Below are positions 3,428 through 55,677 of a stretch of 64,000 bases of DNA, piece after piece. Every line of letters starts with the position of its first letter. The stretch's first letter is position 1. The position numbers were made by a program, and so were the translations under genes. A model generated the notes under the pieces. That model did no database searches. It saw only the letters and a list, made by a program, of their open reading frames with translations, and was not told the origin of the DNA. Origin of the DNA: a virus; IMG/VR virus record IMGVR_UViG_3300045988_120652, one strand, 5' to 3'.

Positions 3428-4939
3428 ATGAAAAGAATTGAGAATTTCGACGATTATCGTGCGTTGGTTGACGTGGTAAAGATGCACGACTATAGATACT
3501 TCGGGCTGAACTGTCCGATCATCAGCGACGAGGAATATGATGCTATGTACTTTGCTGTGCAGGAGTACGAAGAGCAGCACGCGGACGAGATATTGCCCGA
3601 CTCACCTACTCAGCAGTGCTACAGTGAGAATGGCAACGGCAAGCGTACCGTGGCACGTCGTACGGCTTGTCTGTCGATGAAGAAGCTGCATGATGCCAAA
3701 TCGGTGGTGAAATACCTGAGAGCACAACAGAAAGCTGCCAACATCAACGGCAAGGGCACGGAGGTGGATGTAGAGTGGAAATTCGATGGCGAGACGGTGA
3801 GCCTTATTTATCGTCGCGGGAGACTCTCGGAGGCCACTTACGGACATGGCAAAGAGCTGTTCGGTATCGACTGCCTGGATCATATGAAGTATGTGAATGG
3901 CGTTGAGGGATATGTGGAGCAATGGAAGGATGAGGACCGTGTGGAGCTGAGAGGCGAGGTGATTATCTCGCTTGAAGAGTTCGCTCGTTATAGCAAGGCA
4001 GGTAAGTCGCCAAGATCTACAAGCAATGGCATTATGTCGAAGAAAGAGGCTGTGCCGTCGGAGTGCATCCATCTGGAGTTTCATCCCTTCCGCATAATAG
4101 CCGACGGGGTAACATTGCATTATTATGCTATGGACGAGTTGGCTTATAGAGGTTTTCTCACTTGCGTTTTCGTGGAGCAGATAGACATGGGCAAGAGCGA
4201 CGACGAGTTGACGCAGGACGTGGAGCGCATAGTATGCACGGCCGAGGTGGAGCGCGAGAAGCTGCCCTACCCTACCGACGGACTCGTTTTCAAGTTTGAC
4301 AATTACGACTATTACGACCGCATCGGACAGACCGACCATGACGCAAAGTACAACTGTGCGTTTAAATTTCGCCCCGTATTCAAGGCTGTTACCACATATC
4401 GCGGACATCATACCACGATAGGCGAGAAGACTGGCAAGGTGACGTATGTCGCCGACTTTGACGAGGTGGAAATGAACGGACACCGTTTTGCACATGCCAA
4501 CTGCGGCAGCGAGAAGACCTTCAACCAGAAGGGCCTTGTGGCAGGTTGCAAGATAGAGGTTAGCTTGCACGGAGATGTTATCGTGTGCGTGGATGGCAAG
4601 GTGGAGGATGAGCCTGAGATTAATCAGAGTCAGGAGCCGGAAGTAGAGCCTTGCGTTATAGAGCCTGAGATTAATCAGAGCCAGGAGCTGGAAGCAGAGC
4701 CGGAACCTATACCCCAGCCGAAGCCGAAACGCAAGCGTAACTATCCGCAGGTAGGCGAGCCGACACTACGAGAGGAACGCGAGGACACGTCGGAAAGTGA
4801 AGACAAGGGCATGAGCGTGAAGACAGTGTTGGCGGGTGTACTGGCGGTGCTGCTGGCAGTGTCAACGGGAGTCGTGATGTTGGCGTTTGCGGGCGCTGCG
4901 GTGTTCTTAATGCCGATGATTGGCGGAAAGCGAGAGTGA
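3428..4939 (+). CDS. NAD-dependent DNA ligase (LigA)-like protein: adenylation and OB domains only, with C-terminal repeat linker and TM helix
   Basis: PIISDEEYDAMY..LPDSPTQ (domain Ia/NTase start). VEWKFDGETVSLIY (KxDG adenylation lysine). VELRGEV, TDGLVFKFD, CAFKF and an OB segment follow. No Zn-finger, HhH or BRCT domains. The tail is EPEINQSQEPE x2 followed by the hydrophobic stretch VKTVLAGVLAVLLAVSTGVVMLAFAGAAVFLMPMIGG. Confidence 0.75.
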   Translation: MKRIENFDDYRALVDVVKMHDYRYFGLNCPIISDEEYDAMYFAVQEYEEQHADEILPDSPTQQCYSENGNGKRTVARRTACLSMKKLHDAKSVVKYLRAQQKAANINGKGTEVDVEWKFDGETVSLIYRRGRLSEATYGHGKELFGIDCLDHMKYVNGVEGYVEQWKDEDRVELRGEVIISLEEFARYSKAGKSPRSTSNGIMSKKEAVPSECIHLEFHPFRIIADGVTLHYYAMDELAYRGFLTCVFVEQIDMGKSDDELTQDVERIVCTAEVEREKLPYPTDGLVFKFDNYDYYDRIGQTDHDAKYNCAFKFRPVFKAVTTYRGHHTTIGEKTGKVTYVADFDEVEMNGHRFAHANCGSEKTFNQKGLVAGCKIEVSLHGDVIVCVDGKVEDEPEINQSQEPEVEPCVIEPEINQSQELEAEPEPIPQPKPKRKRNYPQVGEPTLREEREDTSESEDKGMSVKTVLAGVLAVLLAVSTGVVMLAFAGAAVFLMPMIGGKRE

Positions 4940-4940
4940 G

Positions 4941-5017
4941 TGTTGAATTTTGAATGTTGAATGTTGAATGTTGAATTGTCGGCTTTGCCGATTTTGAATT
5001 ATTCAATTTTGAATTTT
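4941..5017. repeat. TTTTGA-unit array plus hairpin (copy B), probable terminator of the ligase gene
   Basis: gttgaattttgaatgttgaatgttgaatgttgaattg, TCGGC-ttt-GCCGA (4979-4991), ttttgaattattcaattttgaatttt. Confidence 0.7.
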
Positions 5018-5034
5018 ATTTTGACTACTTAATT

Positions 5035-5172
5035 ATGACAGTAGAAGAGTATTTTAATCACTTGAAAGTTATTACTGAAAACGCCGGAGCAGACAAGACA
5101 GGCGTAAAGATTGAGACGGAGGACGGATATTGCATCAGCATATCTGTAACTAAGAAACTAAATAAAAAATAG
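5035..5172 (+). CDS. small hypothetical ORF (45 aa)
   Basis: ATG..TAG ORF read by hand (MTVEEYFNHLKVITENAG...). It fills the gap before 5180 and is below the ORF-track size cutoff. Confidence 0.3.
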   Translation: MTVEEYFNHLKVITENAGADKTGVKIETEDGYCISISVTKKLNKK

Positions 5173-5179
5173 GGCATTT

Positions 5180-5425
5180 ATGAAAAACCAGAAATTCGAG
5201 ATTCGTATTGCCGTAGGTGGCGATGACGAGAAATTAGGAGTGAACGTGGAAGTATGGAAAGACGGAAAATTCTCTGACTTCAGATTGCTTGATGGCGACA
5301 ACCTGCGACTCGCATACGAGGCTTCTAAGTATGCGACGGGGATCATTGCACGACTCTACCTTGAGCACCTGCACGAGGAGGGGCAACTTGATGACGAGCA
5401 ATACAAGAAGCTCCATACGAAATAA
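5180..5425 (+). CDS. hypothetical protein (81 aa)
   Basis: ATG ORF, no motif recognised. Confidence 0.5.
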   Translation: MKNQKFEIRIAVGGDDEKLGVNVEVWKDGKFSDFRLLDGDNLRLAYEASKYATGIIARLYLEHLHEEGQLDDEQYKKLHTK

Positions 5426-5469
5426 TATATCGCACAGTTTTTATTAACAATTTAAAACTTTATAGAATT

Positions 5470-5697
5470 ATGGCAGAAACAGAGAAATTTACAAAGAGTC
5501 AGATTGCAACATTGAAGCACATCCAGAAGAAAGGTTTTGCGGGTTATCGACGTGTAGACGGAAAGCCAGCGTGTCCGGAACTGGAGGAACTCGTGGAAGC
5601 AGGGTATCTTGAGAAGTGGTTTCAGAGCATGTTCGGTGAGGACGTGTACAAGCTGACGGAGAAGGGCGAAAACCTGGTAAGGTCGCTTGTAGGATAA
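5470..5697 (+). CDS. small hypothetical protein, possibly winged-helix-like (75 aa)
   Basis: ATG ORF. The ELVEAGYLEK..YKLTEKG pattern resembles a wHTH recognition helix plus wing. This is weak evidence. Confidence 0.4.
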   Translation: MAETEKFTKSQIATLKHIQKKGFAGYRRVDGKPACPELEELVEAGYLEKWFQSMFGEDVYKLTEKGENLVRSLVG

Positions 5698-5799
5698 AAT
5701 CCGGTAAAACGGTTGAATCCGATGTTAAAGAAATATCGGGTTCATCCGTTTCTTCTGATGACTGGCGTGTGGACATAACTGTAAATGACGAATGGGAAT

Positions 5800-7789: not shown

Positions 7790-7874
7790 GTAAACAAAAA
7801 CGTAGGAGTTGGTAAACAAAAACGTAGGTTTTGGTACATAAAAACGTAGGTTTAAGTACATAAAAACGTAGGTT
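7790..7874 (-). repeat. iterons, inverted set (4 x 19 nt at 22-bp spacing), abutting the rep start codon
   Basis: GTAAACAAAAACGTAGG(AG/TT) at 7790 and 7812. GTACATAAAAACGTAGGTT at 7834 and 7856. The last copy ends at 7874 and the ATG is at 7875. Confidence 0.85.
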
Positions 7875-9434
7875 ATGGCAAAGAAAGCGAAAAAAGAAGA
7901 CAAAGAAGGCAAACTTCAACTTGCTTTGAATGAACTGCGCTGGATAAACACTCCTGTCAACTATACATCATACGCTAAAAGCTATTCCCTCATACAACAG
8001 GATGTTATGTTGTTGGTAAGCGGACGGCTGCAAGACCATTTTGCCAAGTTCTTGAACGAACACCGCTATTTGAGCAAAGAACGTCCTAATGGGGGCATAA
8101 CGAAAGAAGATCTGTTGAAGATGGGACCGATACGTTTGCGCCTGGCTGACTTCGGCATAGATAGCAGTCATTATGACGAGTCGGTGAAGGTGATAAACCA
8201 AATGAAGAAAATAGAGTTTCATCTTCCTCGGTTTGATTCGGAGACAGGACTTAGAAAAGGCGAGGACTACATGCCAATCTTCAGTAAGATATTTATTCCA
8301 AAGAACTTCACGTCACGGGAAGGCGAAGATTTCAATTATTCTGGAGACGGTGAGATTAAGATTGATGAGGACGGACAGGAAGTACGCAAGTTTCGACGTG
8401 ACGGATATATCGAGGTCACGATAAACATAGAGGTTGCAAAAGCTGTGTTTGATATGACAGATGGATATTTTAATCATCTTGAACGTATCGCCTATTTCTG
8501 CAATTCGGCTTACACGTCACGTCTTTATCTCCTGCTGATGAAGTATGCGAGCAAGGGACAGATGCACCCTGCTATAGATTACCGTGAGTTAAAAGAAGCA
8601 TTGGGAATGTTTAAGGTAGACGTTGAGAAAAGCGACGATACGCAACCTGCAAAGGTTGTGACTACCGAGAAATATCAGAAATTCTCACAGTTCCGCAAAC
8701 AGGTGTTAGATGTGGCGCGTGGCGACATGGAACGACTATGTGAGGAAAATAAGATAGAGATAATGCTCTCGTGCATCGACCCAGAAAAAAAAGGTTACGA
8801 GCCTATTTATAGAGGCAGCGCAAAACGAGGCAATCCTGAAAAAATAAAGTTTCACATTAAGCGCACGCCGTTGGGTGTGGCGCGAGATTTGGAGCTGCAT
8901 CGTGGCTCGTCAGAAAAGCGTTTGTGCACCAAGCTGATGTCGTTATACCCTACACTCGACGAAGAACGGCTCAAGACGTTTGTTGCTGATGTTCCAGAAG
9001 ACCTTTGGAACGACTTCAAGGCGTATGCCTATAATGGCGTGCCCCAGGCAGTGGAGCAGCCGCATAGATGGAGTGGCACGATGGAGGACTTCGTGTTTTA
9101 CATTATGGAGCAATGGATAAAGCAGCATAGCGCGAAGGCCGAGGCACAGCAACAGACTTTTGCCTTTGCTGAAGTCGAGGAAGTGAAACCAGGTGAAAAA
9201 GAGTGGCAGATGTTTTTGCGCTTGATTGATAAGCAACTTGCGTCCGACTTGAGCAAGGTTAGGTACCTATCGTTTGAGGATGGTGCTGTATGTTTGGGCG
9301 TGGAGAATAAATCTCAAGTAGAAATGATAGAAGAGCATTTTGTCGATGTTGCCGTTTTGTCCCATGCGCAGAAATGCGCCGTTAAGATATTCGGCAAGAA
9401 AATTTCCCTGAACTATAAGATTGTAAAACAATAA
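7875..9434 (+). CDS. rep: plasmid-type replication initiator (Rep_3-like)
   Basis: Iterons lie directly upstream. SYSLIQQDVMLLVSGRL and YFCNSAYTSRLYLLLMKY resemble the two winged-helix signature segments of Rep_3 initiators. Confidence 0.7.
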   Translation: MAKKAKKEDKEGKLQLALNELRWINTPVNYTSYAKSYSLIQQDVMLLVSGRLQDHFAKFLNEHRYLSKERPNGGITKEDLLKMGPIRLRLADFGIDSSHYDESVKVINQMKKIEFHLPRFDSETGLRKGEDYMPIFSKIFIPKNFTSREGEDFNYSGDGEIKIDEDGQEVRKFRRDGYIEVTINIEVAKAVFDMTDGYFNHLERIAYFCNSAYTSRLYLLLMKYASKGQMHPAIDYRELKEALGMFKVDVEKSDDTQPAKVVTTEKYQKFSQFRKQVLDVARGDMERLCEENKIEIMLSCIDPEKKGYEPIYRGSAKRGNPEKIKFHIKRTPLGVARDLELHRGSSEKRLCTKLMSLYPTLDEERLKTFVADVPEDLWNDFKAYAYNGVPQAVEQPHRWSGTMEDFVFYIMEQWIKQHSAKAEAQQQTFAFAEVEEVKPGEKEWQMFLRLIDKQLASDLSKVRYLSFEDGAVCLGVENKSQVEMIEEHFVDVAVLSHAQKCAVKIFGKKISLNYKIVKQ

Positions 9435-25778: not shown

Positions 25779-26405
25779 ATGAAAAAAAACCGTAAATATA
25801 CTGACGAGCCAGGAGCTGATAAGGGAGCCATACACTTGATAATAAACAAGTTTCGTAGCAGCATCTGTCCGTTTTGTTGCAATAAGCAGTACGACCCCGA
25901 TACGATTCCCGTGGCGACTGTAAAGGAACTGAAGGCTGCGCATACTGTTATGCTTACTGGTGGAGAACCGTTCGTGGTGCCCGGCATTATTGACTTTTGT
26001 TCACACCTGCGCTTTGATTATTCTAACATCAAGCAAATATATGTCTACACTTCTGGCTATATAATGTCCACCCATGAGGAATTGCATAATTATCCATGTA
26101 GACTCTACCGAAACGTGGACGGCATTAACTTTTCACCTAAAAGTAAGTACGACTACGAGGCAATTAAGAATATGCTGACGAATGGGGATTTTGCAATAGA
26201 GTTCTTTGCCCATGCTCGTAGCAACCGCATTATCCTAATGCCTAACGACTTTATGACCCGTAAGCAGCAGGAAGAATTTATTGAGAGCCTACCTCTCGAA
26301 GGTTTGGCTTTTTATGGTGCAAAATTTGACGTAGAATATAGAGAATGGCAGGAAGAGTTTCAGCCGAATGGTGGCGTGTGGCGCAGACTGCCAGTTTTCT
26401 TGTAA
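25779..26405 (+). CDS. radical-SAM activase-like protein with non-canonical Cys motif
   Basis: LIINKFRSSICPFCCN aligns with the NrdG/PflA-type CxxxCxxC region, but the first Cys is Arg. VMLTGGEPF matches the SAM-binding GGE motif. Confidence 0.4.
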   Translation: MKKNRKYTDEPGADKGAIHLIINKFRSSICPFCCNKQYDPDTIPVATVKELKAAHTVMLTGGEPFVVPGIIDFCSHLRFDYSNIKQIYVYTSGYIMSTHEELHNYPCRLYRNVDGINFSPKSKYDYEAIKNMLTNGDFAIEFFAHARSNRIILMPNDFMTRKQQEEFIESLPLEGLAFYGAKFDVEYREWQEEFQPNGGVWRRLPVFL

Positions 26406-26592: not shown

Positions 26593-28584
26593 TCACCTTC
26601 CACTCGGCAGCACAAACCAACCGCCACCGACACGGAAGAACTTGCAACCTAAGTACAGCGTATCAAAGGCATCGGTAAAATCGGTACGGTTTTGTAAGGG
26701 GAGGGTCGTTTCGCTCTCGGGCTTTTTTTCTTCAGACTTATTTTTGTGAAATCCTCGATACGAAATCTGCACTTCGCAGAGCTGCATGGCAATGATAAGG
26801 TCTGGGTTGTTCGGCTGATTGATGCGGATGGCAGGGTAGGAGAGGTGAGCCAAGCCGTCGTTGATGATCTTGTGCTTCACCTCGTGCTTCTCAGGAGCAC
26901 CCATATCTATGGCGGTCACGTTCCACCCTCGCTTCTCTAATTCTGCAATCACTGTCATATAGAACCGCTCGTCCGATGAAGCATACGATGCGCCCTGCTT
27001 TGCCGTGGCATCATAAAAATACGTCACGTCGCGGTTGATGGCCCGCTTCGGTGCGTAATAATCCGAAAAATCGGCTATCAGTTCACGCAGCTTTCGCTCG
27101 TTCTTCACATAGAAACTCTTGATGACGTTCAGACAGTCCATGCCGTCGCGCTCGTACATTTGCCCGACCACCAAGGTATTGATGTTGGCGTTGTAGTCGA
27201 GAGCTATATATAAAGGTAGAGAGTTGATGCAGTCGGCATCCATGCGGCAGTCGTTGCGCTCGGACAGTTCTTTTAAGTCCGGCTGATAACTCTCGCTTGT
27301 GATGCGTTTGCCGTTGATGATGCCAGTAGATTTTTGCGTACTAAAATTAGCTTGGCTTAGTACATCATTGTCTATTGTATAACCGTGGACATGGTCGATG
27401 TCGAGGTTGGAGTAAAAGCCATCGTTTGACTTCTGCACCTTGATGTTGAGAATCGAGACTGCGAAAGTGTAGGGTGGAAGATCTCTCTTCATCTGACGGA
27501 TATAGTCTTCACCCAGAATATCAATATTTTCTAAAGTGCTTGCTCTACGAACCACAAAAGCTACTCGGCGCAGCTCACGCAGGTAGCCGTCGGAGAATTT
27601 CTTTGACCGCAGAAACATCTGCATCTCAAAATCCTCTTCAGGCGTGATAAGGTATTCGTAATCGTAAATCAGTTCGGCATCTTCCTGCGGAATAAGTTTA
27701 TAGTTGACAGCCATCTCCACCATACCCTTTGTGACGTGTAGACCATGGTTGGGCATAATCTTGAACTGTCCCTCATGCTTCATCATCTTCAGAGCCACGG
27801 CACGGATCATTGTGCGCAGTTCATTCGACACCACATGAACCGAGTGACTGGTCTTCTTGGCGTTATACAGCAGGTCGTTGTAGCGTATCACCTTGTCGGC
27901 GTATTCCTCCAACTGCTCCTGCACCCATCGGTAGGTCTTGCTCTTGAATGGACCCGTCTCCACGGTCATGTCTAACTTCTCCTCCTCTTTTTCCAGCCAC
28001 GAACCTTTGGCTGTGAGCGAAGCATCCGAGAGGAAGCGTGTACTTTTATACATCGGATTGTAGTCGGAGAAGTTGATGTCGCCCAACGGGTGCGTCTGGC
28101 CCGAAAGCGCCGGCATCAACTCGTCGGTCACTTTCTTATAAGGAAAGAACCTCGCCTCGTCGCCCACCATCGCCGAGAACGTGTAAGAGTTGGCAGAGGC
28201 AGTCTGTGAGAGCGATATAAGTACCCATAAAGACCCATTTGCAAACCATATCACGTTGTCATAGTTCTTGGGCTTGAATATGCTCTCTTTTGCATGCTTA
28301 GGCGGGCGTCCCCAACCTACATGAATGCCTAATACGAAACCGAACATACGTTCCAAAGCGGCCAATGTTCCAGGGATTGTTTTACTAAAACCTTGTTGCC
28401 GGCTCACAGCTACCCATGCACCGAGCATACCAGGCATGGAATTAGAGGCAGCCCAGACGTATGGCGCAACCAATCCATCGGTTTTTCCAGTACGTCGAGC
28501 CGCTATAATCCTCTCATCTTTCGCTTCCATAATGAGGGACTTTTGCTGAAATTTATTCAGGTATATCTGATGTGGTTCTTTCAT
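26593..28584 (-). CDS. terL: terminase large subunit
   Basis: Walker A-like IIAARRTGKTDG. Walker B-like AMVGDEARFF. The C-terminal half has LYIALDYNANINTLVVGQ (RNase H-like nuclease beginning). The 663-aa size fits. Confidence 0.85.
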   Translation of the reverse strand: MKEPHQIYLNKFQQKSLIMEAKDERIIAARRTGKTDGLVAPYVWAASNSMPGMLGAWVAVSRQQGFSKTIPGTLAALERMFGFVLGIHVGWGRPPKHAKESIFKPKNYDNVIWFANGSLWVLISLSQTASANSYTFSAMVGDEARFFPYKKVTDELMPALSGQTHPLGDINFSDYNPMYKSTRFLSDASLTAKGSWLEKEEEKLDMTVETGPFKSKTYRWVQEQLEEYADKVIRYNDLLYNAKKTSHSVHVVSNELRTMIRAVALKMMKHEGQFKIMPNHGLHVTKGMVEMAVNYKLIPQEDAELIYDYEYLITPEEDFEMQMFLRSKKFSDGYLRELRRVAFVVRRASTLENIDILGEDYIRQMKRDLPPYTFAVSILNIKVQKSNDGFYSNLDIDHVHGYTIDNDVLSQANFSTQKSTGIINGKRITSESYQPDLKELSERNDCRMDADCINSLPLYIALDYNANINTLVVGQMYERDGMDCLNVIKSFYVKNERKLRELIADFSDYYAPKRAINRDVTYFYDATAKQGASYASSDERFYMTVIAELEKRGWNVTAIDMGAPEKHEVKHKIINDGLAHLSYPAIRINQPNNPDLIIAMQLCEVQISYRGFHKNKSEEKKPESETTLPLQNRTDFTDAFDTLYLGCKFFRVGGGWFVLPSGR

Positions 28585-28709
28585 TTTTATGTTTTTGTGT
28601 TGTTGTAAAAATAATCATAAAAAAATAGTTGAACGGGACATCATCACTATACGTTTTGCTCGGATTTCTTCTTTTTTTAAAATTCAATTTTTAATTTTAG
28701 AATTAAAAG

Positions 28710-28741
28710 TTTGGAGTTTTCAAATAAAGTCTCTACCTTTG
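28710..28741 (+). promoter_or_regulatory. strong Bacteroidota-type promoter (-33 TTTG, -7 TACCTTTG)
   Basis: TTTG at 28710-28713 and TACCTTTG at 28734-28741, followed by CA. Spacing is 21 nt. Confidence 0.6.
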
Positions 28742-28746
28742 CAGTG

Positions 28747-28952
28747 CTACAATAAAAAATCAAAACATCCATTTGTTCATAGGGAACTGTGAATTTCCCA
28801 CCGAACAAACAAAATGAATACTTACCACCTCCACCATGGAGGAGGGATTATGATACCCTCTTTAGGCGGCGGTCTCCGAACATTAAGTTCCCATTTATGG
28901 GTGTTTTGAAATGTTGTAGCAACGGAGACACGCCGCCAATTTAATTTTTAAT
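28747..28952 (+). ncRNA. candidate ~200-nt structured RNA or leader
   Basis: Three hairpins follow the promoter. (1) UUUGUUC..GGGAA-cugugaa-UUCCC..GAACAAA. (2) CCUCC-accau-GGAGG and GAGGG..CCCUC. (3) A long hairpin, GGCGGCG-GUCUCCG...CGGAGAC-a-CGCCGCC, enclosing CCCAU-uu-AUGGG. This is followed by AAUUUAAUUUUU. Confidence 0.4.
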
Positions 28953-28971
28953 GCTACACATTTCAAAACAA

Positions 28972-29115
28972 ATGAAAACGAAAAAGAAAATGAAGCTCCA
29001 CAACGGCTTAATGTTGTCTCTCGCAATTATAGTGAGTTTTTGCGGGTGTTTGTGCAAAGGTGACTTTGCTTTTCAAGTGTCTTTTCCCTATGCTTCTTTT
29101 ATAATAGAAATGTAA
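28972..29115 (+). CDS. small putative lipoprotein (47 aa)
   Basis: Read by hand: MKTKKKMKLHNGLMLSLAIIVSFCGC.. (signal peptide plus lipobox). Confidence 0.4.
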   Translation: MKTKKKMKLHNGLMLSLAIIVSFCGCLCKGDFAFQVSFPYASFIIEM

Positions 29116-29116
29116 T

Positions 29117-29293
29117 ATGGTACGGCAGACAAATGTAACTATTGATATGGATAAAGACACATTGCAACATGCAGTAACGTCAGTAATAGAACATCTTTCT
29201 CTTTATCCTCCGACAGAAGAAGAACATACCATAGAGTATAGTCTTGGTTTACAGGTTCTTTTTGATTGCTTGAAAGCAACGTTTAATTCTTGA
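29117..29293 (+). CDS. small hypothetical ORF (58 aa)
   Basis: Read by hand: MVRQTNVTIDMDKDTLQHAV... It starts 1 nt after the previous stop and ends 7 nt before the next ATG. Confidence 0.35.
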   Translation: MVRQTNVTIDMDKDTLQHAVTSVIEHLSLYPPTEEEHTIEYSLGLQVLFDCLKATFNS

Positions 29294-29300
29294 TTTGAAG

Positions 29301-30869
29301 ATGCTAAAAAAGAACTCTGTTAGTATTGCTTCCCATCCGATACTTAGTAGAGTATGGGATTACTGTAGAAACGAAGGACAAGATCCATCCTGTATAGGAA
29401 TTAAAAGCGGCAAGATGTATTCTTGGCTTTGTGATAGTTGTTCTACTCCATTCGTATCGACAGCGGAGGAAGTTCATAGACATAAAGGCTTATGTCCCGA
29501 TTGTCATCGGGTAGTAGTTAATCAGCATAGGAAGAGAAAGAACGATATTCAATACGGATCTGTTGCGGATATTCCTTTTATAATGGACTTATGGTGTGAT
29601 GATAATCCCGATCCTCATTCTATTAGAAAAAACTCTCAATCAAAAGTAAAAATCCGTTGTGCAGATTGTGGCAGCGTTGTAGAGCATGCAGTTAGAGACA
29701 TCTATAGGCATCACATGGTTTTTTGCAAGGACTGTGAGAAGAAAAGAAGAGCTTTGACATATCAAAAAACGATTATTGCAAAAACGGGGTCTTGCGCTGA
29801 TTTTCCAGAAATAATGGGTGTTTGGGATTTTGATGCAAATAAAATAACCCCTCAAGTTGTTCCTTCAGGTAGTCGCTATAAAATCCATTGCAAGTGCCCC
29901 CAATGTGGCAGCAGGTGGCAGTCTTTCGTATATCAGAGAAAAGGAAAAACGCCCTTGTGTCAGCGATGCGCAAAAGGAAAAGCTGTTGAACGCCGTGATA
30001 AAGTCAGATCTTCAGAAAGGACAAATAAGTATCTGTCTTTTGCGGAAATAAATCCCGTCCTCGCTTCATGGTGGCATCCAACACTGAATGGGAATGTAAC
30101 TCTTAATGACATACCTCCTGCGTCTCATAAAGAATACTTCTGGATCTGTCCTAATAATCATGTTTTTAAGGCTGCGCCTGAGAACATGAGAGCAAGACGT
30201 TTTTGCCCTGTATGTCGGCCTACTATACATTCCTCTTTTATAGAAATGGCTATAGCTTTTTATCTAAAAGAAGTTTCTACCGTTGAGCAATGGGTAAACA
30301 TCCCAGGCACAAGGATGTCGATGGATATGTATTTACCATTACTTAATACTTGTATAGAGTATGATGGAGTTATGTATCACAACAACTCGCGCCAATATAA
30401 GAGAGATTTACGCAAGGATGAATTGTTGGCACAAAAGCATATTAGGTTGATTCGCATAAAGGAATGGTGTAGCGAAACTCATTCTGAAGACACCATTTAT
30501 TTCGATTACAACAAATTCAATTTACAGGGATTATTAGATACATTATGTGAGATGTTATCTCTGTCTTGTGTAAAGGTTGATTTGCTGAAAGACTCTTCCG
30601 CGATTTATCAAAAGTTATATCCCAAGGTGGTGAAAAATTCTATTTCACAAAAAAATCCCCGTTTAATTCCTTATTGGGATTTACAGGCTAATAATGGTGT
30701 GTCTCCAGACAAGGTTAATGTTTTTTCCACTTTGCTTTTTTCGTGGAAATGCCCAGATTGTAATGCAAAATGGAAACAGTCTCCTATAGGAATGATGCGA
30801 AGAAAAAACATCTGTCAGGAGTGCAATCCTTATGATCACAATAAGGGCAAGACGAGAAAACGGTTATAG
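29301..30869 (+). CDS. five-fold zinc-ribbon repeat protein with embedded Vsr/DUF559-like PD-(D/E)xK nuclease domain
   Basis: Five repeats of W..(N)..P......S...(W/I).C..C...(W/F).......R.....CP.C. The nuclease-like block is MDMYLP..NTCIEYDGVMYHNNSRQYKRDLRKDELLAQKHIRLIRIKEW. Confidence 0.65.
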   Translation: MLKKNSVSIASHPILSRVWDYCRNEGQDPSCIGIKSGKMYSWLCDSCSTPFVSTAEEVHRHKGLCPDCHRVVVNQHRKRKNDIQYGSVADIPFIMDLWCDDNPDPHSIRKNSQSKVKIRCADCGSVVEHAVRDIYRHHMVFCKDCEKKRRALTYQKTIIAKTGSCADFPEIMGVWDFDANKITPQVVPSGSRYKIHCKCPQCGSRWQSFVYQRKGKTPLCQRCAKGKAVERRDKVRSSERTNKYLSFAEINPVLASWWHPTLNGNVTLNDIPPASHKEYFWICPNNHVFKAAPENMRARRFCPVCRPTIHSSFIEMAIAFYLKEVSTVEQWVNIPGTRMSMDMYLPLLNTCIEYDGVMYHNNSRQYKRDLRKDELLAQKHIRLIRIKEWCSETHSEDTIYFDYNKFNLQGLLDTLCEMLSLSCVKVDLLKDSSAIYQKLYPKVVKNSISQKNPRLIPYWDLQANNGVSPDKVNVFSTLLFSWKCPDCNAKWKQSPIGMMRRKNICQECNPYDHNKGKTRKRL

Positions 30870-30892
30870 TTAATATAAAAACGAATGGCAAT

Positions 30893-31132
30893 CTAATTAC
30901 CATTCGTTTTATTTATTTTATGCCCCACATGCCATTTGTTGCATGTCCTGCATCGGTACACCGTATATCCTTGTGCCTTGAGCTTCGGATTTTGTTGAAG
31001 AAATTCCCAAGCATCATCCTCCGTCTCGTAAGCCTCCTTAGCTTTCCAGGAGTGTTGCTTGCGTGTGTAATGCTCGGGGTCCGGCTTGAATGGCGGCACC
31101 TTGTTGAAGTACTTGTGTCTGTTGTTGCCCAT
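30893..31132 (-). CDS. small hypothetical protein (79 aa)
   Basis: Start set at MGNNRHKY, behind a CA-rich leader. Contains YRCRTCNKWH. Confidence 0.5.
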   Translation of the reverse strand: MGNNRHKYFNKVPPFKPDPEHYTRKQHSWKAKEAYETEDDAWEFLQQNPKLKAQGYTVYRCRTCNKWHVGHKINKTNGN

Positions 31133-31164
31133 GTGTTGTTTTTGTGTTGTTGTTAGTTGTGTTG

Positions 31165-31950
31165 TCAGAAGAGAGTAGGCTGCGCCAGCTCCATTTTGAT
31201 GCGCTTGCAAGCCTTGTCGTAATACTCCTTGTTGAGCTCGAAGCCGATGAAGTTTCGCTTTTCACGGATAGCTGCAATGGCGGTGGTGCCGCTGCCCATA
31301 CAGTTGTCTAATATGGTGTCGCCCTCGTTGGAGTAGGTACGGATGAGGTACTGAATAAGAGCAACTGGCTTTTGGGTGGGATGGATCTTCTCCTTATCCC
31401 GAATAAATTCGAGTAAATTTATAGGGAAACGAGAACCATCACTTACTGTCACAGCTCCTCCAGTCTGTGCTTGACATTTTCCTCGTACCATTGCAGCGTC
31501 TTTTCGTTGAATGCCATTTTTGCAGGCATAAGGCTTGTACCCCTTAATCATTTGAGGATGATACTCCATATACTTTTTTTTCTTGCTTTCAGTTGTTGCT
31601 GCCATTCCAAAAACACATATATCTTCTGTAATCTTCAATGGTTGATGATGGGAATTTAAGTAATTAGTACCACTCTCCTTTTTCCATATCCAATTATACT
31701 TATACATATCTATGTTCGACATGATAAGCGCAGACGTAAAAGGTTGCTGACTAAACAAGACTATAGCACCAGTATTCTTTATGATTCTCTTGTATTGCTC
31801 CCACAACTTGTCAAATGGAATTACGCTATCCCAAGCACAAGCAGTAGTACCATACGGCAAATCGCACACAATGCAATCCACACTTCCGTCCAGAATCCTT
31901 TTCATGCCTTCCAGGCAGTCTTCATTATATATCTTATTCAGTTCTATCAT
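31165..31950 (-). CDS. DNA N6-adenine/N4-cytosine methyltransferase (beta class, PF01555-like)
   Basis: Motif IV IVCDLPYG comes first. This is followed by IHPTQKP and motif I ILDNCMGSGTTAIAA. Confidence 0.9.
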   Translation of the reverse strand: MIELNKIYNEDCLEGMKRILDGSVDCIVCDLPYGTTACAWDSVIPFDKLWEQYKRIIKNTGAIVLFSQQPFTSALIMSNIDMYKYNWIWKKESGTNYLNSHHQPLKITEDICVFGMAATTESKKKKYMEYHPQMIKGYKPYACKNGIQRKDAAMVRGKCQAQTGGAVTVSDGSRFPINLLEFIRDKEKIHPTQKPVALIQYLIRTYSNEGDTILDNCMGSGTTAIAAIREKRNFIGFELNKEYYDKACKRIKMELAQPTLF

Positions 31951-31967
31951 TCTCTATATCATTTATT

Positions 31968-32016
31968 CGTTTTGAATTGTCGCCGTTGGCGATTAGGATT
32001 TATCCATTTTTGAGTT
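31968..32016. repeat. TTTTGA-unit element plus hairpin (copy E) between the two paralogous MTase genes
   Basis: gttttgaattg, TCGCC-gttg-GGCGA (31980-31992), ttaggattt. The hairpin is identical to copy D. Confidence 0.65.
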
Positions 32017-32017
32017 G

Positions 32018-32920
32018 TCAGAACAGCGTGAACTGCGCTTGCTCCAACTTGATGCGCTTACAAGCCTTGTCGTAATACTCCTTGTTGAGCTCGAAGCCGA
32101 TGAAGTTGCGCTTGGTCTGTACGCAGCCTACCTGCGTTGTTCCCACTCCCGAAAACGGGTCTAAGACAATATCACCTTCGTTACTGCTGGCTTTTATCAG
32201 TCTACGGATTAGCTTTAACGGCTTTTGAGTGGGATGGATATGTTTTTCTTCATAAAAGTTAATATCAGACCACACGTCAGTAACTCCTATTTGCGGATTG
32301 AATGTCTGAGCGACTTTTTCATACGGACAATCAAAGGAGAGTACATGGGAAAGTTTGTCCCAGAGCTCCTTCGTAGGAAATTGCTCACATACGTTATTGC
32401 CGGTGTAAATACTCCACATGCCACCGCCATTAGACTTAACCCCCAACGCTTCATTGATTTGCTTGGCAGTCAGTCCTAATGCTTCTTGGCGTTCTTTGAG
32501 GAATGGCTTTACAAATTTCTTGTTGTCTTTGATTATAAAGAGTACGCTTTCCGTTACGTTAGGAAACATCTTGTATCTTCGTGTAGCCCGTCCGCTTACG
32601 ACACGCATACCCTTATCAATAACAATTTGCTGTCTTAATTCAAGTCCAAGTGATTCAAGGTAAGGAATGAGCAAGACTAAGATTCTGAAATAACCAAAGC
32701 AGTAGAATGTTCCACCTATACGCAAAACTCGCGCAACCTCCTTCATCCATTTAATGCACCATTCCACATAATCGCTCTCAGTTCTCCATTGATAATCCCA
32801 TTGCTCGTCAATTACTTTCCAGTAAGGAGGGTCTGCAACCGCAAGGCCTATGGAATTATCTTGAATGGCTTTCATCCCTTCCAGGCAGTCTTCATTATAT
32901 ATCTTATTCAGTTCTATCAT
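32018..32920 (-). CDS. DNA N6-adenine/N4-cytosine methyltransferase (beta class), paralog of 31165..31950
   Basis: Motif IV AVADPPYW, then IHPTQKP and VLDPFSGVGTT. The first 17 aa and last ~20 aa are almost identical to the neighbour. Confidence 0.9.
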   Translation of the reverse strand: MIELNKIYNEDCLEGMKAIQDNSIGLAVADPPYWKVIDEQWDYQWRTESDYVEWCIKWMKEVARVLRIGGTFYCFGYFRILVLLIPYLESLGLELRQQIVIDKGMRVVSGRATRRYKMFPNVTESVLFIIKDNKKFVKPFLKERQEALGLTAKQINEALGVKSNGGGMWSIYTGNNVCEQFPTKELWDKLSHVLSFDCPYEKVAQTFNPQIGVTDVWSDINFYEEKHIHPTQKPLKLIRRLIKASSNEGDIVLDPFSGVGTTQVGCVQTKRNFIGFELNKEYYDKACKRIKLEQAQFTLF

Positions 32921-32939
32921 TCTCTATTGTTTTTTTCTA

Positions 32940-33533
32940 TCAGTTAAACCATTTTACGGTTGTCTCGCCCTCATATCCTTTCTCCCACACGAACCAGGCG
33001 TAAGCCGCAGCGCTGCCGCCGTACTTGTCGAAGTCGCCATTCATAGCGCATTTCAGTCTTGACGAGCTTACCCAAACACGAATGGGGGGGGTAGAACGGA
33101 AGAGAGCGCGTCGAGCCTTGCCTTCGAGGAAAGTCAGCTTCAGGAACATCGCCACCTTCTTTCCTTCGGGGATGATGCTCAGAGCCTTTTCCACAAACAG
33201 CAGCGCATATTTGTAGGGAGGATTGGTAACGATGTTGCCGTCCCATTCCATATTGTCAATAGAGAGAAAGTCGGCCACCTCGCCGTAACCTCTATCTACA
33301 AGGTCGCGGCTCACCACCTCATACCCTGCTGTCTCCAACACTCTACTCATGTGTCCCTCGCCACACGACGGCTCAAGAATCCTGCCCTCAAACCGCTCCA
33401 GCTTGCACAGCCATTCCGTCGCCTTCGGCTCAGTGGCATAGTAATCCTCACGCTGCCTGTCCCCATCAGCATGATTACTCGCGCCTAATGTCTTGAACAC
33501 CGCAGCCGAGCCACCCACCCAGTCTTTAGCCAT
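32940..33533 (-). CDS. DNA N6-adenine methyltransferase (gamma-type order: motif I then NPPY)
   Basis: ILEPSCGEGHM (motif I) and IVTNPPYKY (motif IV). Start set at MAKDW. Contains a C8 run on the coding strand (33084-33091). Confidence 0.8.
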   Translation of the reverse strand: MAKDWVGGSAAVFKTLGASNHADGDRQREDYYATEPKATEWLCKLERFEGRILEPSCGEGHMSRVLETAGYEVVSRDLVDRGYGEVADFLSIDNMEWDGNIVTNPPYKYALLFVEKALSIIPEGKKVAMFLKLTFLEGKARRALFRSTPPIRVWVSSSRLKCAMNGDFDKYGGSAAAYAWFVWEKGYEGETTVKWFN

Positions 33534-33753
33534 TGTCAGTCTCCTTTCCTTGAAGTTCGCACAACGTGACATATTCGTTTTGCTGAGTAAACGGATCTTC
33601 CTCGGTAATCATAAAGTTGGTTTTCCTCTCCTTAAAGCCGAGAGCGTCGAGCATTTCATAAATATCCTCGTTCTGCATACCCTTTGTCACATCCTCCGTA
33701 TCATTGATGATGGAGACCGTTCCGCGACTGTAATCTAAGATTGATATATACAT
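33526..33753 (-). CDS. hypothetical protein (75 aa)
   Basis: Start set at MYISILDY, behind a CA-rich leader. Confidence 0.45.
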   Translation of the reverse strand: MYISILDYSRGTVSIINDTEDVTKGMQNEDIYEMLDALGFKERKTNFMITEEDPFTQQNEYVTLCELQGKETDNG

Positions 33754-35818: not shown

Positions 35819-35867
35819 AGTTTTGTGTTTTTTATATAGCCAAAGTTACAATATTCCCCGTACCCCG

Positions 35868-36015
35868 TGCGGACATGAGTTTAAGTGAAGAGTGAAAAGT
35901 GAAGAGTGAAAAATCCAATAGTTAAGTGAAGAGTGAAAAGTGAAGAGAACACATGGATTCTTCACTCTTCGTTCTTCACTCTTCGTTTTTTACTCTTCCC
36001 TTAAACCCATGTCCG
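35868..36015. repeat. large imperfect palindrome built from GAAGAGTGAA units
   Basis: The outer arms are GCGGACATGAGTTTAAG (35868-35884) and CTTAAACCCATGTCCGC (35999-36015). The interior holds GTGAAGAGTGAAAA repeats facing TTCACTCTTCGTTCTTCACTCTTCG. Confidence 0.75.
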
Positions 36016-36036
36016 CATTGCGGAGCAGTTTATCAG

Positions 36037-36044
36037 TAACTTTG
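36037..36044 (+). promoter_or_regulatory. -7 box TAACTTTG for the holin gene
   Basis: Matches TAnnTTTG, 45 nt before the ATG at 36089. Confidence 0.4.
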
Positions 36045-36088
36045 TTGTAGAAAATTCAGGATAACAACACAAAAACAACAACACAACT

Positions 36089-54719: not shown

Positions 54720-55646
54720 ATGGAACTAAGACATTTGCGTTCGTTTGTAAACGTAGCTGAAACCAAGTTATTTAGTATGGCAGCCACACGTTGTTGCGTT
54801 ACCCAGTCGGCGGTAAGCCAGCACATTCGTGCCCTGGAGGACGAGTTGGGCTGCAAATTGCTTATCCGCACATCACACGGCATTATGCTCACCGAAAGCG
54901 GCGAAGCCCTGTTGCCTCGTGCAAAAGAAATACTGAAACAGACCGAGGACTGCAAAGAGCAAATCTATGCCCTCAACAACTGCATGACGGGCGAACTGCG
55001 TATAGGCGTAGGCTCGTTTATATCTCCATACATCCGCATGGCAGCATTGATATTCATGGAGAGATATCCAAACGTCCGTATCAATGCCGACTTCACCAAA
55101 GCCTACCTTCTCAACCAATCACTAAGGGCGCACATGTTAGACCTCGCCTTCACCATGAACATGGCATACAGCCACGAAGGTATAGAGACTATACCCTGCA
55201 TACCTTTTAACGTATATGCCATCATGCGCGACACCCATCCGCTTGCCTCGCTCTCAAAGGTGTCGTATGAGGACATTCTGAAGCACCCAATCATCATGCC
55301 CGACATAGGCGAACGTGCCATTGAGACTTTTCATCAATACATACAGCGCGACCTATATAAGCTCAACATTAAGTGCATCATCAGCGACCCCGACGAAGCC
55401 CTTGCCTCGGTGGAAGAAACCAAGTATATAACCTTCATGCCTAAGCTCTACCTGCGCAACCACCCTACCCTTGTGGCGCGTCCCATCGTCGGACTCGAAC
55501 AGCAGTTGATGAGCAACGCCCACTGTATGCAGGACGTACCTAAGAAGCGAGCTGCACAACTCTTCCTCGACATCATCCGCGACGAGGTAGTGCCATACAT
55601 TTCCGTAGCCGAAGAGTCGCAAGGGAAGTTCACACCGCCACCTTGA
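54720..55646 (+). CDS. LysR-family transcriptional regulator
   Basis: MELRHLRSFVNVAETKLFSMAATRCCVTQSAVSQHIRALEDELGCKLL is a canonical LysR HTH. The 308-aa length includes a substrate-binding domain. Confidence 0.9.
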   Translation: MELRHLRSFVNVAETKLFSMAATRCCVTQSAVSQHIRALEDELGCKLLIRTSHGIMLTESGEALLPRAKEILKQTEDCKEQIYALNNCMTGELRIGVGSFISPYIRMAALIFMERYPNVRINADFTKAYLLNQSLRAHMLDLAFTMNMAYSHEGIETIPCIPFNVYAIMRDTHPLASLSKVSYEDILKHPIIMPDIGERAIETFHQYIQRDLYKLNIKCIISDPDEALASVEETKYITFMPKLYLRNHPTLVARPIVGLEQQLMSNAHCMQDVPKKRAAQLFLDIIRDEVVPYISVAEESQGKFTPPP

Positions 55647-55677
55647 TAGTCATTAGATTTTCTTATAATGAACCGAG

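Follow-up and report, generated by a model that had tools for sequence, protein, structure and literature searches.

The subject of this analysis is an AT-rich island on the plus strand of a 64,000-nt stretch of viral DNA (IMG/VR virus record IMGVR_UViG_3300045988_120652; the whole stretch is called the window below). As judged from comparison with related phages, the island is inserted exactly between p105, a gene for a small conserved protein, and the packaging gene terL in the genome of an uncultured gut phage of ~90-105 kb. We consider it probable that it represents a mobile, free-standing homing-endonuclease island, in which a constant 5' module that acts as an RNA gate in cis is combined with an exchangeable, selfish nuclease. 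The constant 5' part would consist of a host-type promoter, a leader of ~200 nt, a small membrane-type open reading frame (ORF) that seems to be decayed here, and orf58. The exchangeable 3' part would here be a protein with five DUF4379 domains and a Vsr/EDxHD-type core, followed by a bidirectional terminator.

The island at the p105/terL junction

An initial annotation of this stretch, made from the letters alone, had pointed to an AT-richer island read from the plus strand, and the base composition bears this out. The GC content at 28591-30915 is 0.371, the lowest of all segments of the same size (~2.3 kb) in the stretch, the mean of which is 0.462 (sd 0.030). We compared the window with 80 IMG/VR phage contigs that encode a TerL protein 77-96% identical to its own. 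The island is present in a single one of them (3300045988_141376, 96% identical) and absent from the other 79, in which the DNA homology to the window breaks at 28590-28605 and restarts at 30916. There is a presence/absence polymorphism at one junction with boundaries exact to a few nucleotides, i.e. the pattern of a free-standing homing gene, and the mobile look that the island had been given on sight was not misleading. In the phages without the island p105 abuts terL, and the p105 stop codon lies 2 nt ahead of the terL ATG (...GGATAACAATG; the junction DNA of the L009 type reads ...GGACATAAAACATCAGGATAACAATG...), therefore the island splits a tightly coupled gene pair.

Both neighbours carry island sequence at their ends. 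The last three codons of p105 in the island-free phages (TSG*) are swapped for seven codons and a stop derived from the island (INKTNGN*; 30893..30915, minus strand), while terL, the ATG of which is at 28584 on the minus strand, is supplied with a new upstream region (28591..28709). The latter is the left end of the island, where the homology of the relatives ends, and it may contain an outward-facing TAnnTTTG box on the minus strand, which is clear in contigs L092 and L094 and imperfect in the window. The right end is formed by a hairpin with U tracts on both strands (30878..30910; -12.5 kcal/mol on the plus strand and -16.8 kcal/mol on the minus strand) that resembles a bidirectional terminator and overlaps the new 3' end of p105.

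The junction has received other DNA as well. Unrelated inserts of 100-230 nt are found there in contigs L012, L017, L025 and L041 (at about 7830-8000), and some of them hold TTGAGTTTTGAG-type repeats and hairpins. Since such short inserts occur in several relatives, the p105/terL junction seems to be a hot spot for insertions in general, or else the inserts look like remnants of other elements. In the GenBank phage records neither the island nor its surroundings had a DNA match, near or distant. The product of p105 itself (30893-31210, directly upstream of terL) has a C-terminal zinc-ribbon-like motif (Y-R-C-R-x-C-x-K-W-H-x-G-H) and matches solely PHROGs of unknown function; its position suggests a role in packaging, possibly as a small-terminase-like partner.

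The cargo of the island in the window is a predicted endonuclease of 522 amino acids (29301..30869, plus strand) that is built of four DUF4379 zinc ribbons, a Vsr/DUF559-like core (residues ~312-390) and one more ribbon; the initial annotation had read five ribbons and such a core. Pfam DUF4379 (PF14311) matches the protein in five stretches (E = 2e-38, 130.8 bits at a cut-off of 24.5), and residues 328-388 give a weak match to REase_MTES_1575 (17.3 bits at a cut-off of 38.2). The protein also matches PHROG families 559, 681 and 3339, which are annotated as HNH or homing endonucleases. In an alignment of 13 homologs the residues D342, E353, Y354, D355, G356, H360, K372, R385 and E388 are invariant. 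An AlphaFold2 (AF2) model of the nuclease reached a predicted local distance difference test (pLDDT) score of 82. Foldseek aligned its core with the catalytic domain of I-Bth0305I (3r3p_B; prob 0.99, template modelling (TM) score 0.64 on the target) and also with Vsr (1vsr; prob 0.82) and a DUF559-like protein (3hrl), the whole-protein E-values of these matches being weak (0.08-0.8); the ribbons were aligned with the DUF4379 protein 6yxx_E2 (E = 1.6e-7).

An architecture of 3-5 CapR/DUF4379/DUF723-like domains combined with an EDxHD/Vsr nuclease domain was described in 2025 as that of a large, previously unrecognised group of homing endonucleases in phages (PMC12350094). By its architecture and predicted fold the 522-aa protein belongs to this already noted group and is hence of a known kind, with a predicted endonuclease activity. 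Homologs of the nuclease lie at the same terL/p105 junction in other phage contigs of ~100 kb, with identities of 80% (P0002), ~60% (L113/L116) and 55% (P0006). The comparison of related phages that the initial annotation had proposed has returned both an island that is rare among the terL relatives and homologs at the same site elsewhere. In the P0006 phages the zinc-ribbon nuclease stands at the terL site behind a promoter region of 187 nt, without the 5' module.

The leader RNA and the small proteins

The predicted transcription unit of the island begins with a putative Bacteroidota-type promoter (28710..28743, plus strand), in which TTTG (28710-28713, the -33 box) and TACCTTTGCA (28734-28743, the -7 box) are separated by a spacer of 20 nt. 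Both boxes had been recognised from the letters, but the spacer had been counted as 21 nt. The consensus is established knowledge of Bacteroides promoters, and both boxes are kept in every homologous or diverged copy. A sigma-70 promoter and terminator scanner was uninformative for this type of organism.

The promoter is followed by a leader RNA with a structured core (28746..28940, plus strand) that is matched by our covariance model R1 with 256 bits. The fold predicted for 28745-28975 is better than that of dinucleotide shuffles (z = -4.68; 0 of 200 as good). Rfam 15 holds no family for the leader: the best matches score 17-20 bits where the thresholds are 40-100 (E = 2.8-9.3), and those obtained at a permissive E-value are microRNA-like chance matches. 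We also considered the leader as protein-coding sequence, as it contains ORFs of 31 and 51 amino acids, and rejected this: 1-nt indels in L092, L091 and L090 break both frames, therefore the leader has no conserved reading frame, in agreement with the earlier remark that these ~200 nt hold no convincing ORF.

Three hairpins had been reported in the leader. They are present, but they are not the whole structure. The first, H1 (28773..28808, plus strand; 28773-28778 pairs with 28803-28808 and 28782-28786 with 28795-28799), is 96-100% paired; its one-sided changes retain G-U pairs, and an extra basal pair has changed from U-A to A-U in three lineages. The second region forms the hairpins H2a and H2b (28829..28860, plus strand; 28829-28833 with 28837-28841 and 28842-28846 with 28856-28860, respectively), in which three pairs have changed on both sides and 89-91% of the cells are paired. 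The third is the long hairpin H3 (28865..28937, plus strand), the arms of which, GGCGGCGGTCTCCG (28865-28878) and CGGAGACACGCCGCC (28923-28937), are found as they had been described, followed by a U-rich tract (28938-28951). H3 has a GC-rich stem of 13-14 bp, and stem and U tract together have the makeup of an intrinsic terminator, which a simple terminator scanner misses because the loop is 44 nt long. In most lineages H3 has a tail of U5-U6 (AUUUUUU or UUUUUU), of which the window carries a degenerate form (AAUUUAAUUUUU).

To these hairpins a long-range helix of 20 pairs has to be added. RNAalifold, applied to the close copies, pairs the first ~27 nt of the transcript (segment A, 28746..28772, plus strand; outer part 28746-28753, inner part 28761-28772) with a segment in the loop of the long hairpin (segment B, 28897..28920, plus strand). 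Segment B is, alternatively, complementary to segment C (28953..28969, plus strand), which ends 2 nt before the ATG at 28972. As B sits between the two arms of H3, the A:B helix and H3 cross, i.e. the two are either alternatives or parts of a pseudoknot. When a nested fold is forced to contain A:B or H3, the two results lie 0-3.5 kcal/mol apart in nine of ten lineages.

We gathered 21 distinct leader sequences, through pattern scans and through an independent search for homologs of the orf58 protein. Across the lineages the leader shows 73-99.5% nucleotide identity to that of the window as against 61-88% for the adjoining orf58 gene, and each comparison shows it to be better conserved than that gene. 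The leaders found through orf58 are 73-86% identical, and here joint changes have given six sequence versions of segments A and B, each of which still makes a duplex of 19-22 bp (-24 to -30 kcal/mol). In an alignment-free test cognate A and B segments pair with -27.8 kcal/mol and non-cognate ones with -18.5 kcal/mol (0 of 20000 permutations), and there is no segment A that prefers a foreign B. The respective values for B and C are -24.2 and -19.4 kcal/mol (4 of 20000 permutations). In L118, L124 and L122 all three segments have changed in concert.

Alignment-based counts were obtained for 16 distinct leaders with a structure-aware alignment, made from the covariance model R1 that was built on the close copies alone. 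In the whole fold 14 of 41 pairs have changed on both sides, as against 5.2 +/- 1.7 in shuffles (0 of 500 as high) and 1-5 in slid controls, and in the A:B helix this is true for 11 of the 20 pairs. Column-based covariation on a MAFFT alignment of the diverse leaders lost the A:B helix owing to indels. H3 is 99% paired in the 16 leaders, with one double change from G-C to A-U and with one-sided changes that all give G-U pairs. Judged by covariation, the best-supported RNA element is the predicted helix between the 5' end and the hairpin loop. The compensatory changes in excess of the controls mark the leader as a conserved structured RNA. The Rfam search and the covariation analysis of homologous islands, both recommended in the initial annotation, thus led to an RNA outside the Rfam families whose structure as a whole is conserved and covarying.

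Two small proteins are encoded between the leader and the nuclease gene. The first mini-ORF (28972..29115, plus strand) has 47 codons from the ATG at 28972, a conserved start at 28991 being possible too. The initial annotation rightly placed an ORF here and called it lipoprotein-like, a reading that we rejected, as the lipobox, the frame and the C-terminus are all unconserved. The frame is shifted in L087, and in L108, where leader and orf58 are ~1.4 kb apart, an ISL3-like insertion sequence (IS) element with two transposase ORFs lies inside the mini-ORF, with a duplication of ~12 nt, and leaves the leader, orf58 and the nuclease intact. In the diverged modules the first ORF has 63-75 amino acids and is conserved (M-E/K-K-V-M-T-L-G-N-G-L-M-L-Q-I-A-V-L...), with a polar N-terminal part and a hydrophobic C-terminal segment; by this comparison the 47-aa ORF of the window is a decayed, shortened copy of a putative membrane-type ORF.

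The second, orf58 (29117..29293, plus strand), lies where a 58-aa ORF had been annotated and encodes an acidic protein (nine D+E and three K+R residues, net charge about -6). It belongs to a narrow orphan family of 45 clusters with 49-79 amino acids, no Pfam domain and no annotation, and searches in Pfam, PHROG, NCBIfam, PADLOC, PDB sequences, PDB folds and BFVD folds gave no match outside this family. In the AF2 model of the monomer (pLDDT 86) an extended N-terminus is followed by two helices. This predicted topology is compatible with the protomer of a ribbon-helix-helix (RHH) protein, although Foldseek and profile searches match no RHH protein. The orf58 sequences seem to be grouped by cargo type, as judged by eye.

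Reuse of the 5' module with different cargo genes

A first scan with the hairpin sequence found a second copy in a sister contig and another one in a further phage contig. Behind the leader, every copy has a small ORF, an orf58 homolog and a cargo gene in this order, all on the strand of the leader, and it is the cargo that differs. Zinc-ribbon endonucleases are found in the window, L092, L098, L113, L116 and others. TnpB proteins of four lineages take the same place elsewhere: lineage A in L090, L099 and L107, lineage B in L086, L118 and L126, lineage B' (43-45% identical to B) in L101, and lineage C (28-32% identical to B) in L125. The cargo proteins of L122 and L123 (3195-4953, at the terL site) contain one or two DUF5053 domains, whose function is unknown. 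TnpB is itself an RNA-guided homing nuclease (PMC10690162, PMC8612924); the various cargos are therefore analogous in function, which makes it understandable that they have converged on one slot.

The module occupies at least three sites, namely the terL/p105 junction, a divergent junction before a holin gene, and the position directly after a LysR-type gene. The window has empty sites at the latter two (holin, 35819-36057; LysR, 55646-55657). At the terL site of L101, TnpB replaces the zinc-ribbon nuclease behind a leader that is 99.5% identical. In the sister contig L090, an insert of 2.3 kb made up of the module and a lineage A TnpB lies right after the stop codon of the LysR gene; it is flanked by a 15-nt direct repeat (TTTTCTAATGACTAT) and carries a 130-nt fragment of p105. 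Transposon-like ends of the module with TnpB were not definable, and at the holin site the insert has taken the place of the intergenic region instead of merely breaking it. The LysR-family regulator gene of the window (54720-55646; Pfam HTH_1 and LysR_substrate) stands inside a phage-like stretch. Two identical copies of the module with a lineage B TnpB (L104 and L109) are present in one contig (ERZ808270 NODE-1, 185 kb) that has about twice the usual genome length; they are probably due to a concatemeric assembly rather than to a true duplication.

Distant homologs of orf58 occur in other surroundings. In L120 (1-2000) a homolog with 52-56% identity precedes a DUF723 endonuclease-like protein, behind a Bacteroidota-type promoter and an unrelated untranslated leader of ~230 nt, i.e. 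the layout is analogous and the RNA is different. The most distant homolog (51%) lies in L110-L112 (~3680-5710), on a 147-kb contig of a different phage type; in L110 it is followed after 232 nt by a protein of 434 amino acids that has no match in any library, and there is no detectable leader. The leader was not found in L120, L110 or L094 even with the search filters off, and neither the DUF5053 cargo nor the 434-aa protein gave an informative match in the libraries searched. Two exact-pattern scans of 185,579 bacterial and archaeal species genomes returned no copy of the module (L128 is a chance match of 25 nt), and 1.6 Mb of related phage DNA held no extra, diverged or leader-only copy. 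Four hits of a 17-mer scan of IMG/VR (L082-L084 and L088) were discarded as chance matches in GC-rich DNA.

Two further variable features were seen near terL. A cassette at 31165-33572 contains three DNA methyltransferase ORFs (261, 300 and 210 amino acids), and its content varies widely in the 80 terL relatives, with differing combinations and identities of 33-100%. Downstream of terL, an ORF of 208 amino acids (25779-26405) with a cysteine-rich N-terminus (...ICPFCCNKQ...) is a variable accessory gene that is present in some relatives only (46-78% identity).

Possible roles of the module and comparison with known systems

Of the possibilities listed in the initial annotation, a homing endonuclease with an attenuator leader fits best, in view of the junction polymorphism, the PHROG families, the Vsr-like core and the covarying, terminator-like leader. 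What that annotation did not foresee is a separable module shared with TnpB and other cargos, the long-range helix, and a mini-ORF that is not a lipoprotein. We envisage that in a co-infection the nuclease would cut island-free relatives near the p105/terL junction, and that recombinational repair of the cut would copy the island in. The RNA would be a cis gate on the operon. Segment A, at the start of the transcript, would pair with B in the loop of the GC-rich terminator-like hairpin, and segment C, right before the first start codon, could pair with B instead, so that the RNA would toggle between one state in which the transcript is ended or locked and others in which the translation start is exposed or hidden. 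In this way the level of a nuclease that may do harm would be kept low, or its timing correct. From the anatomy, the RNA most likely limits or times the expression of the downstream genes, for which it could use termination at H3 as well as the rivalry between A and C for pairing with B at the translation start. Cleavage of DNA, homing, transcript ends at H3, and the direction and the trigger of the switch are what we infer here.

Several points weigh against this proposal. The core of the nuclease reads E-Y-D-G-x3-H, which is DUF559/Vsr-like, and the literal EDxHD motif is absent. The DUF5053 cargo is not recognisable as a nuclease. Transfer between sites is untidy: the p105 fragment and the 15-nt repeats of L090 imply that movement may be due to illegitimate or homologous recombination, not to nuclease-driven homing. 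As to the RNA, the U tract after H3 is degenerate in the window itself (AAUUUAAUUUUUAA), the B:C pairing is weak in the L113/L116 clade, A:B and H3 could coexist as a pseudoknot rather than alternate, and the covariation of H3 in the 16 leaders is not above that of shuffles because of its low variation. The structure-aware alignment is biased to the modelled fold by construction, although the alignment-free test concurs with it, and the first leaders came from scans for exact patterns, by which conserved copies are preferentially picked up, a bias that the sampling through orf58 corrects in part.

One may go further and regard the module as a portable, RNA-gated docking platform that is the real unit of selection and tames or times whichever nuclease sits behind it. 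We mention this broader idea as a tentative one. The leader would then be a new structured RNA class, possibly a pseudoknotted switch that senses the infection stage or some factor. We would also speculate, again with rather low confidence, that the RNA works together with the orphan acidic protein and lets gut Bacteroidales phages host and exchange nucleases at several sites.

The main rival to a gate in cis is that the leader is the stand-alone gene of a trans-acting small RNA of ~195 nt, which together with the two small proteins would be a moron that benefits the phage (host takeover or exclusion are examples), the nucleases having lodged in a transcribed safe harbour. This deserves attention, since in most lineages H3 with its U5-U6 tail resembles an intrinsic terminator, the A:B helix sequesters the 5' end, as happens in many stable small RNAs, and the loops and single-stranded stretches are highly conserved too, which suggests sequence-specific contacts. 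Moreover, the L101 leader is 99.5% identical and its orf58 gene 67%, therefore the RNA can be inherited apart from what follows it, and unrelated cargos, even an IS element, have been inserted downstream. However, all leader copies have a small ORF, orf58 and a cargo behind them that are read in the same direction and are separated by short spacers or joined by overlapping stop and start codons; leader-only copies were not seen in the related phage DNA and no target was identified. In addition, segment C lies beyond the terminator and still covaries with B, which is sensible only for read-through transcripts. On balance we regard the stand-alone RNA as possible but rather unlikely, and continue to favour the gate in cis.

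A role of the island in anti-phage defence, in superinfection exclusion or as a toxin-antitoxin cassette is improbable. On that view the effector or toxin would be the nuclease, with orf58 or the small membrane protein as its partner, and the RNA would serve as regulator or antitoxin. The initial annotation had offered a defence or exclusion cassette as one option, and the layout invites it: a small hydrophobic ORF and an acidic protein stand beside a nuclease in an AT-rich accessory island with a strong promoter, and PD-(D/E)xK nucleases are common defence effectors. Yet neither the nuclease nor orf58 nor the small ORFs matched any PADLOC-DB 2.0 model at E <= 0.01, and several copies have a first ORF that is decayed or disrupted. 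Some modules are kept with TnpB or DUF5053 proteins in place of the nuclease, which in turn also occurs without the module; nuclease and module are thus unlike an obligate pair of toxin and antidote. The single exact junction across diverged phages is as for homing genes, and exact-pattern scans found no copies in bacterial genomes.

We give still less credit to the idea of a module that forms the left end of a TnpB transposon of the IS200/IS605 type, in which the leader would be a guide-RNA scaffold or DNA hairpins recognised by a transposase and the zinc-ribbon nuclease would have replaced TnpB later. Four TnpB lineages do follow the module, the stop codon of the orf58 homolog overlaps the tnpB start in L090, and module and TnpB form joint inserts of 2.3 kb relative to the empty sites of the window. 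But the guide RNAs of TnpB are encoded at the 3' end of tnpB (PMC8612924, PMC10278001), and the leader lies ~700 nt upstream of tnpB with two ORFs in between. No TnpA is present, and the module also occurs with cargo other than TnpB. Repeated capture is implied by leaders that keep 82-99% identity in front of TnpB lineages with identities down to 28% or no relationship at all. It is only on the transcribed strand that one-sided changes give G-U pairs, and the 15-nt direct repeats and the p105 fragment of L090 are atypical of IS200/IS605 insertion. Least probable of all is a leader without a function of its own, conserved merely through the recent recombinational spread of one promoter fragment: many copies are >95% identical, a recombination breakpoint lies right after the L101 leader and the first scans relied on exact patterns, but the leaders found through orf58 keep their helices at 73-86% identity by means of concerted changes in six A:B versions, so that non-function is contradicted by covariation.

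The nuclease protein and a free-standing homing gene next to terL are of known kinds. What appears to be new is the covariation-supported RNA of ~200 nt without an Rfam family, its linkage to the orphan family of the 58-aa protein, and the reuse of both ahead of unrelated selfish nucleases at several sites in gut phages. We found no description of the module in the literature on DUF4379, TnpB and phage homing endonucleases, the coverage of which was incomplete and in which the RNA motif was not searched directly. Homing endonucleases and TnpB are usually studied apart, and here they share one slot, together with other genes, behind the same module of RNA and small proteins in abundant human-gut phages. 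If the RNA gates the nuclease, Bacteroidota would have in it a compact natural device for the control of enzymes that cut DNA, among them the ancestors of Cas12. Known regulatory RNAs are few in this phylum, the translation start signals of which differ from the textbook model. The defined, covariation-supported motif could enter the RNA family databases, and the island offers a tractable case of phages that tolerate and exchange selfish nucleases beside an essential packaging gene.

It is useful to compare the general features of the island with those of known systems. Phage morons are units of promoter, gene and terminator inserted between conserved phage genes, and the island resembles them in being AT-rich, in having its own promoter and terminator, in its place between two genes of an operon and in its patchy distribution. 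The difference is that it carries a selfish nuclease and a conserved structured RNA, and that no gene of benefit to the host has been identified in it. The free-standing homing genes of T4-like phages (seg, mob, I-TevI), the expression of which is limited by promoters, terminators and RNA hairpins, are similar too: they are intergenic and sporadic in relatives, with their own promoter and terminator and an upstream RNA that is able to hide the start. Here, however, the RNA is a multi-helix structure of ~200 nt with a helix from the 5' end to a loop, it lies upstream of two small ORFs and not immediately at the nuclease start, and it is common to unrelated families of nucleases.

The protein itself is like the EDxHD/Vsr homing endonucleases (I-Bth0305I, and the phage group I/II intron outgroup of PMC12350094) in that several zinc-ribbon repeats of ~60 aa and of a DNA-binding type are combined with a Vsr-fold domain of ~100 aa. 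Unlike in the intron group of that work, the gene is free-standing between genes, one ribbon follows the core, and the motif is E-x-D-G-x3-H. In the IS200/IS605 elements the relevant counterpart is TnpB (PMC8612924, PMC10690162), which fills the slot of the zinc-ribbon protein in the sister loci, suggesting an equivalent selfish role; in contrast to these elements, the island of the window has neither TnpB nor TnpA, and its leader is not at the position of a guide RNA. Finally, the leader shares with attenuators and riboswitch platforms the promoter-proximal position, the GC-rich hairpin with a U tract, and the competing segments A, B and C next to a start codon. It differs from them in that it corresponds to no known aptamer or Rfam family, and in that the A:B helix crosses the terminator hairpin, with which it may form a pseudoknot.

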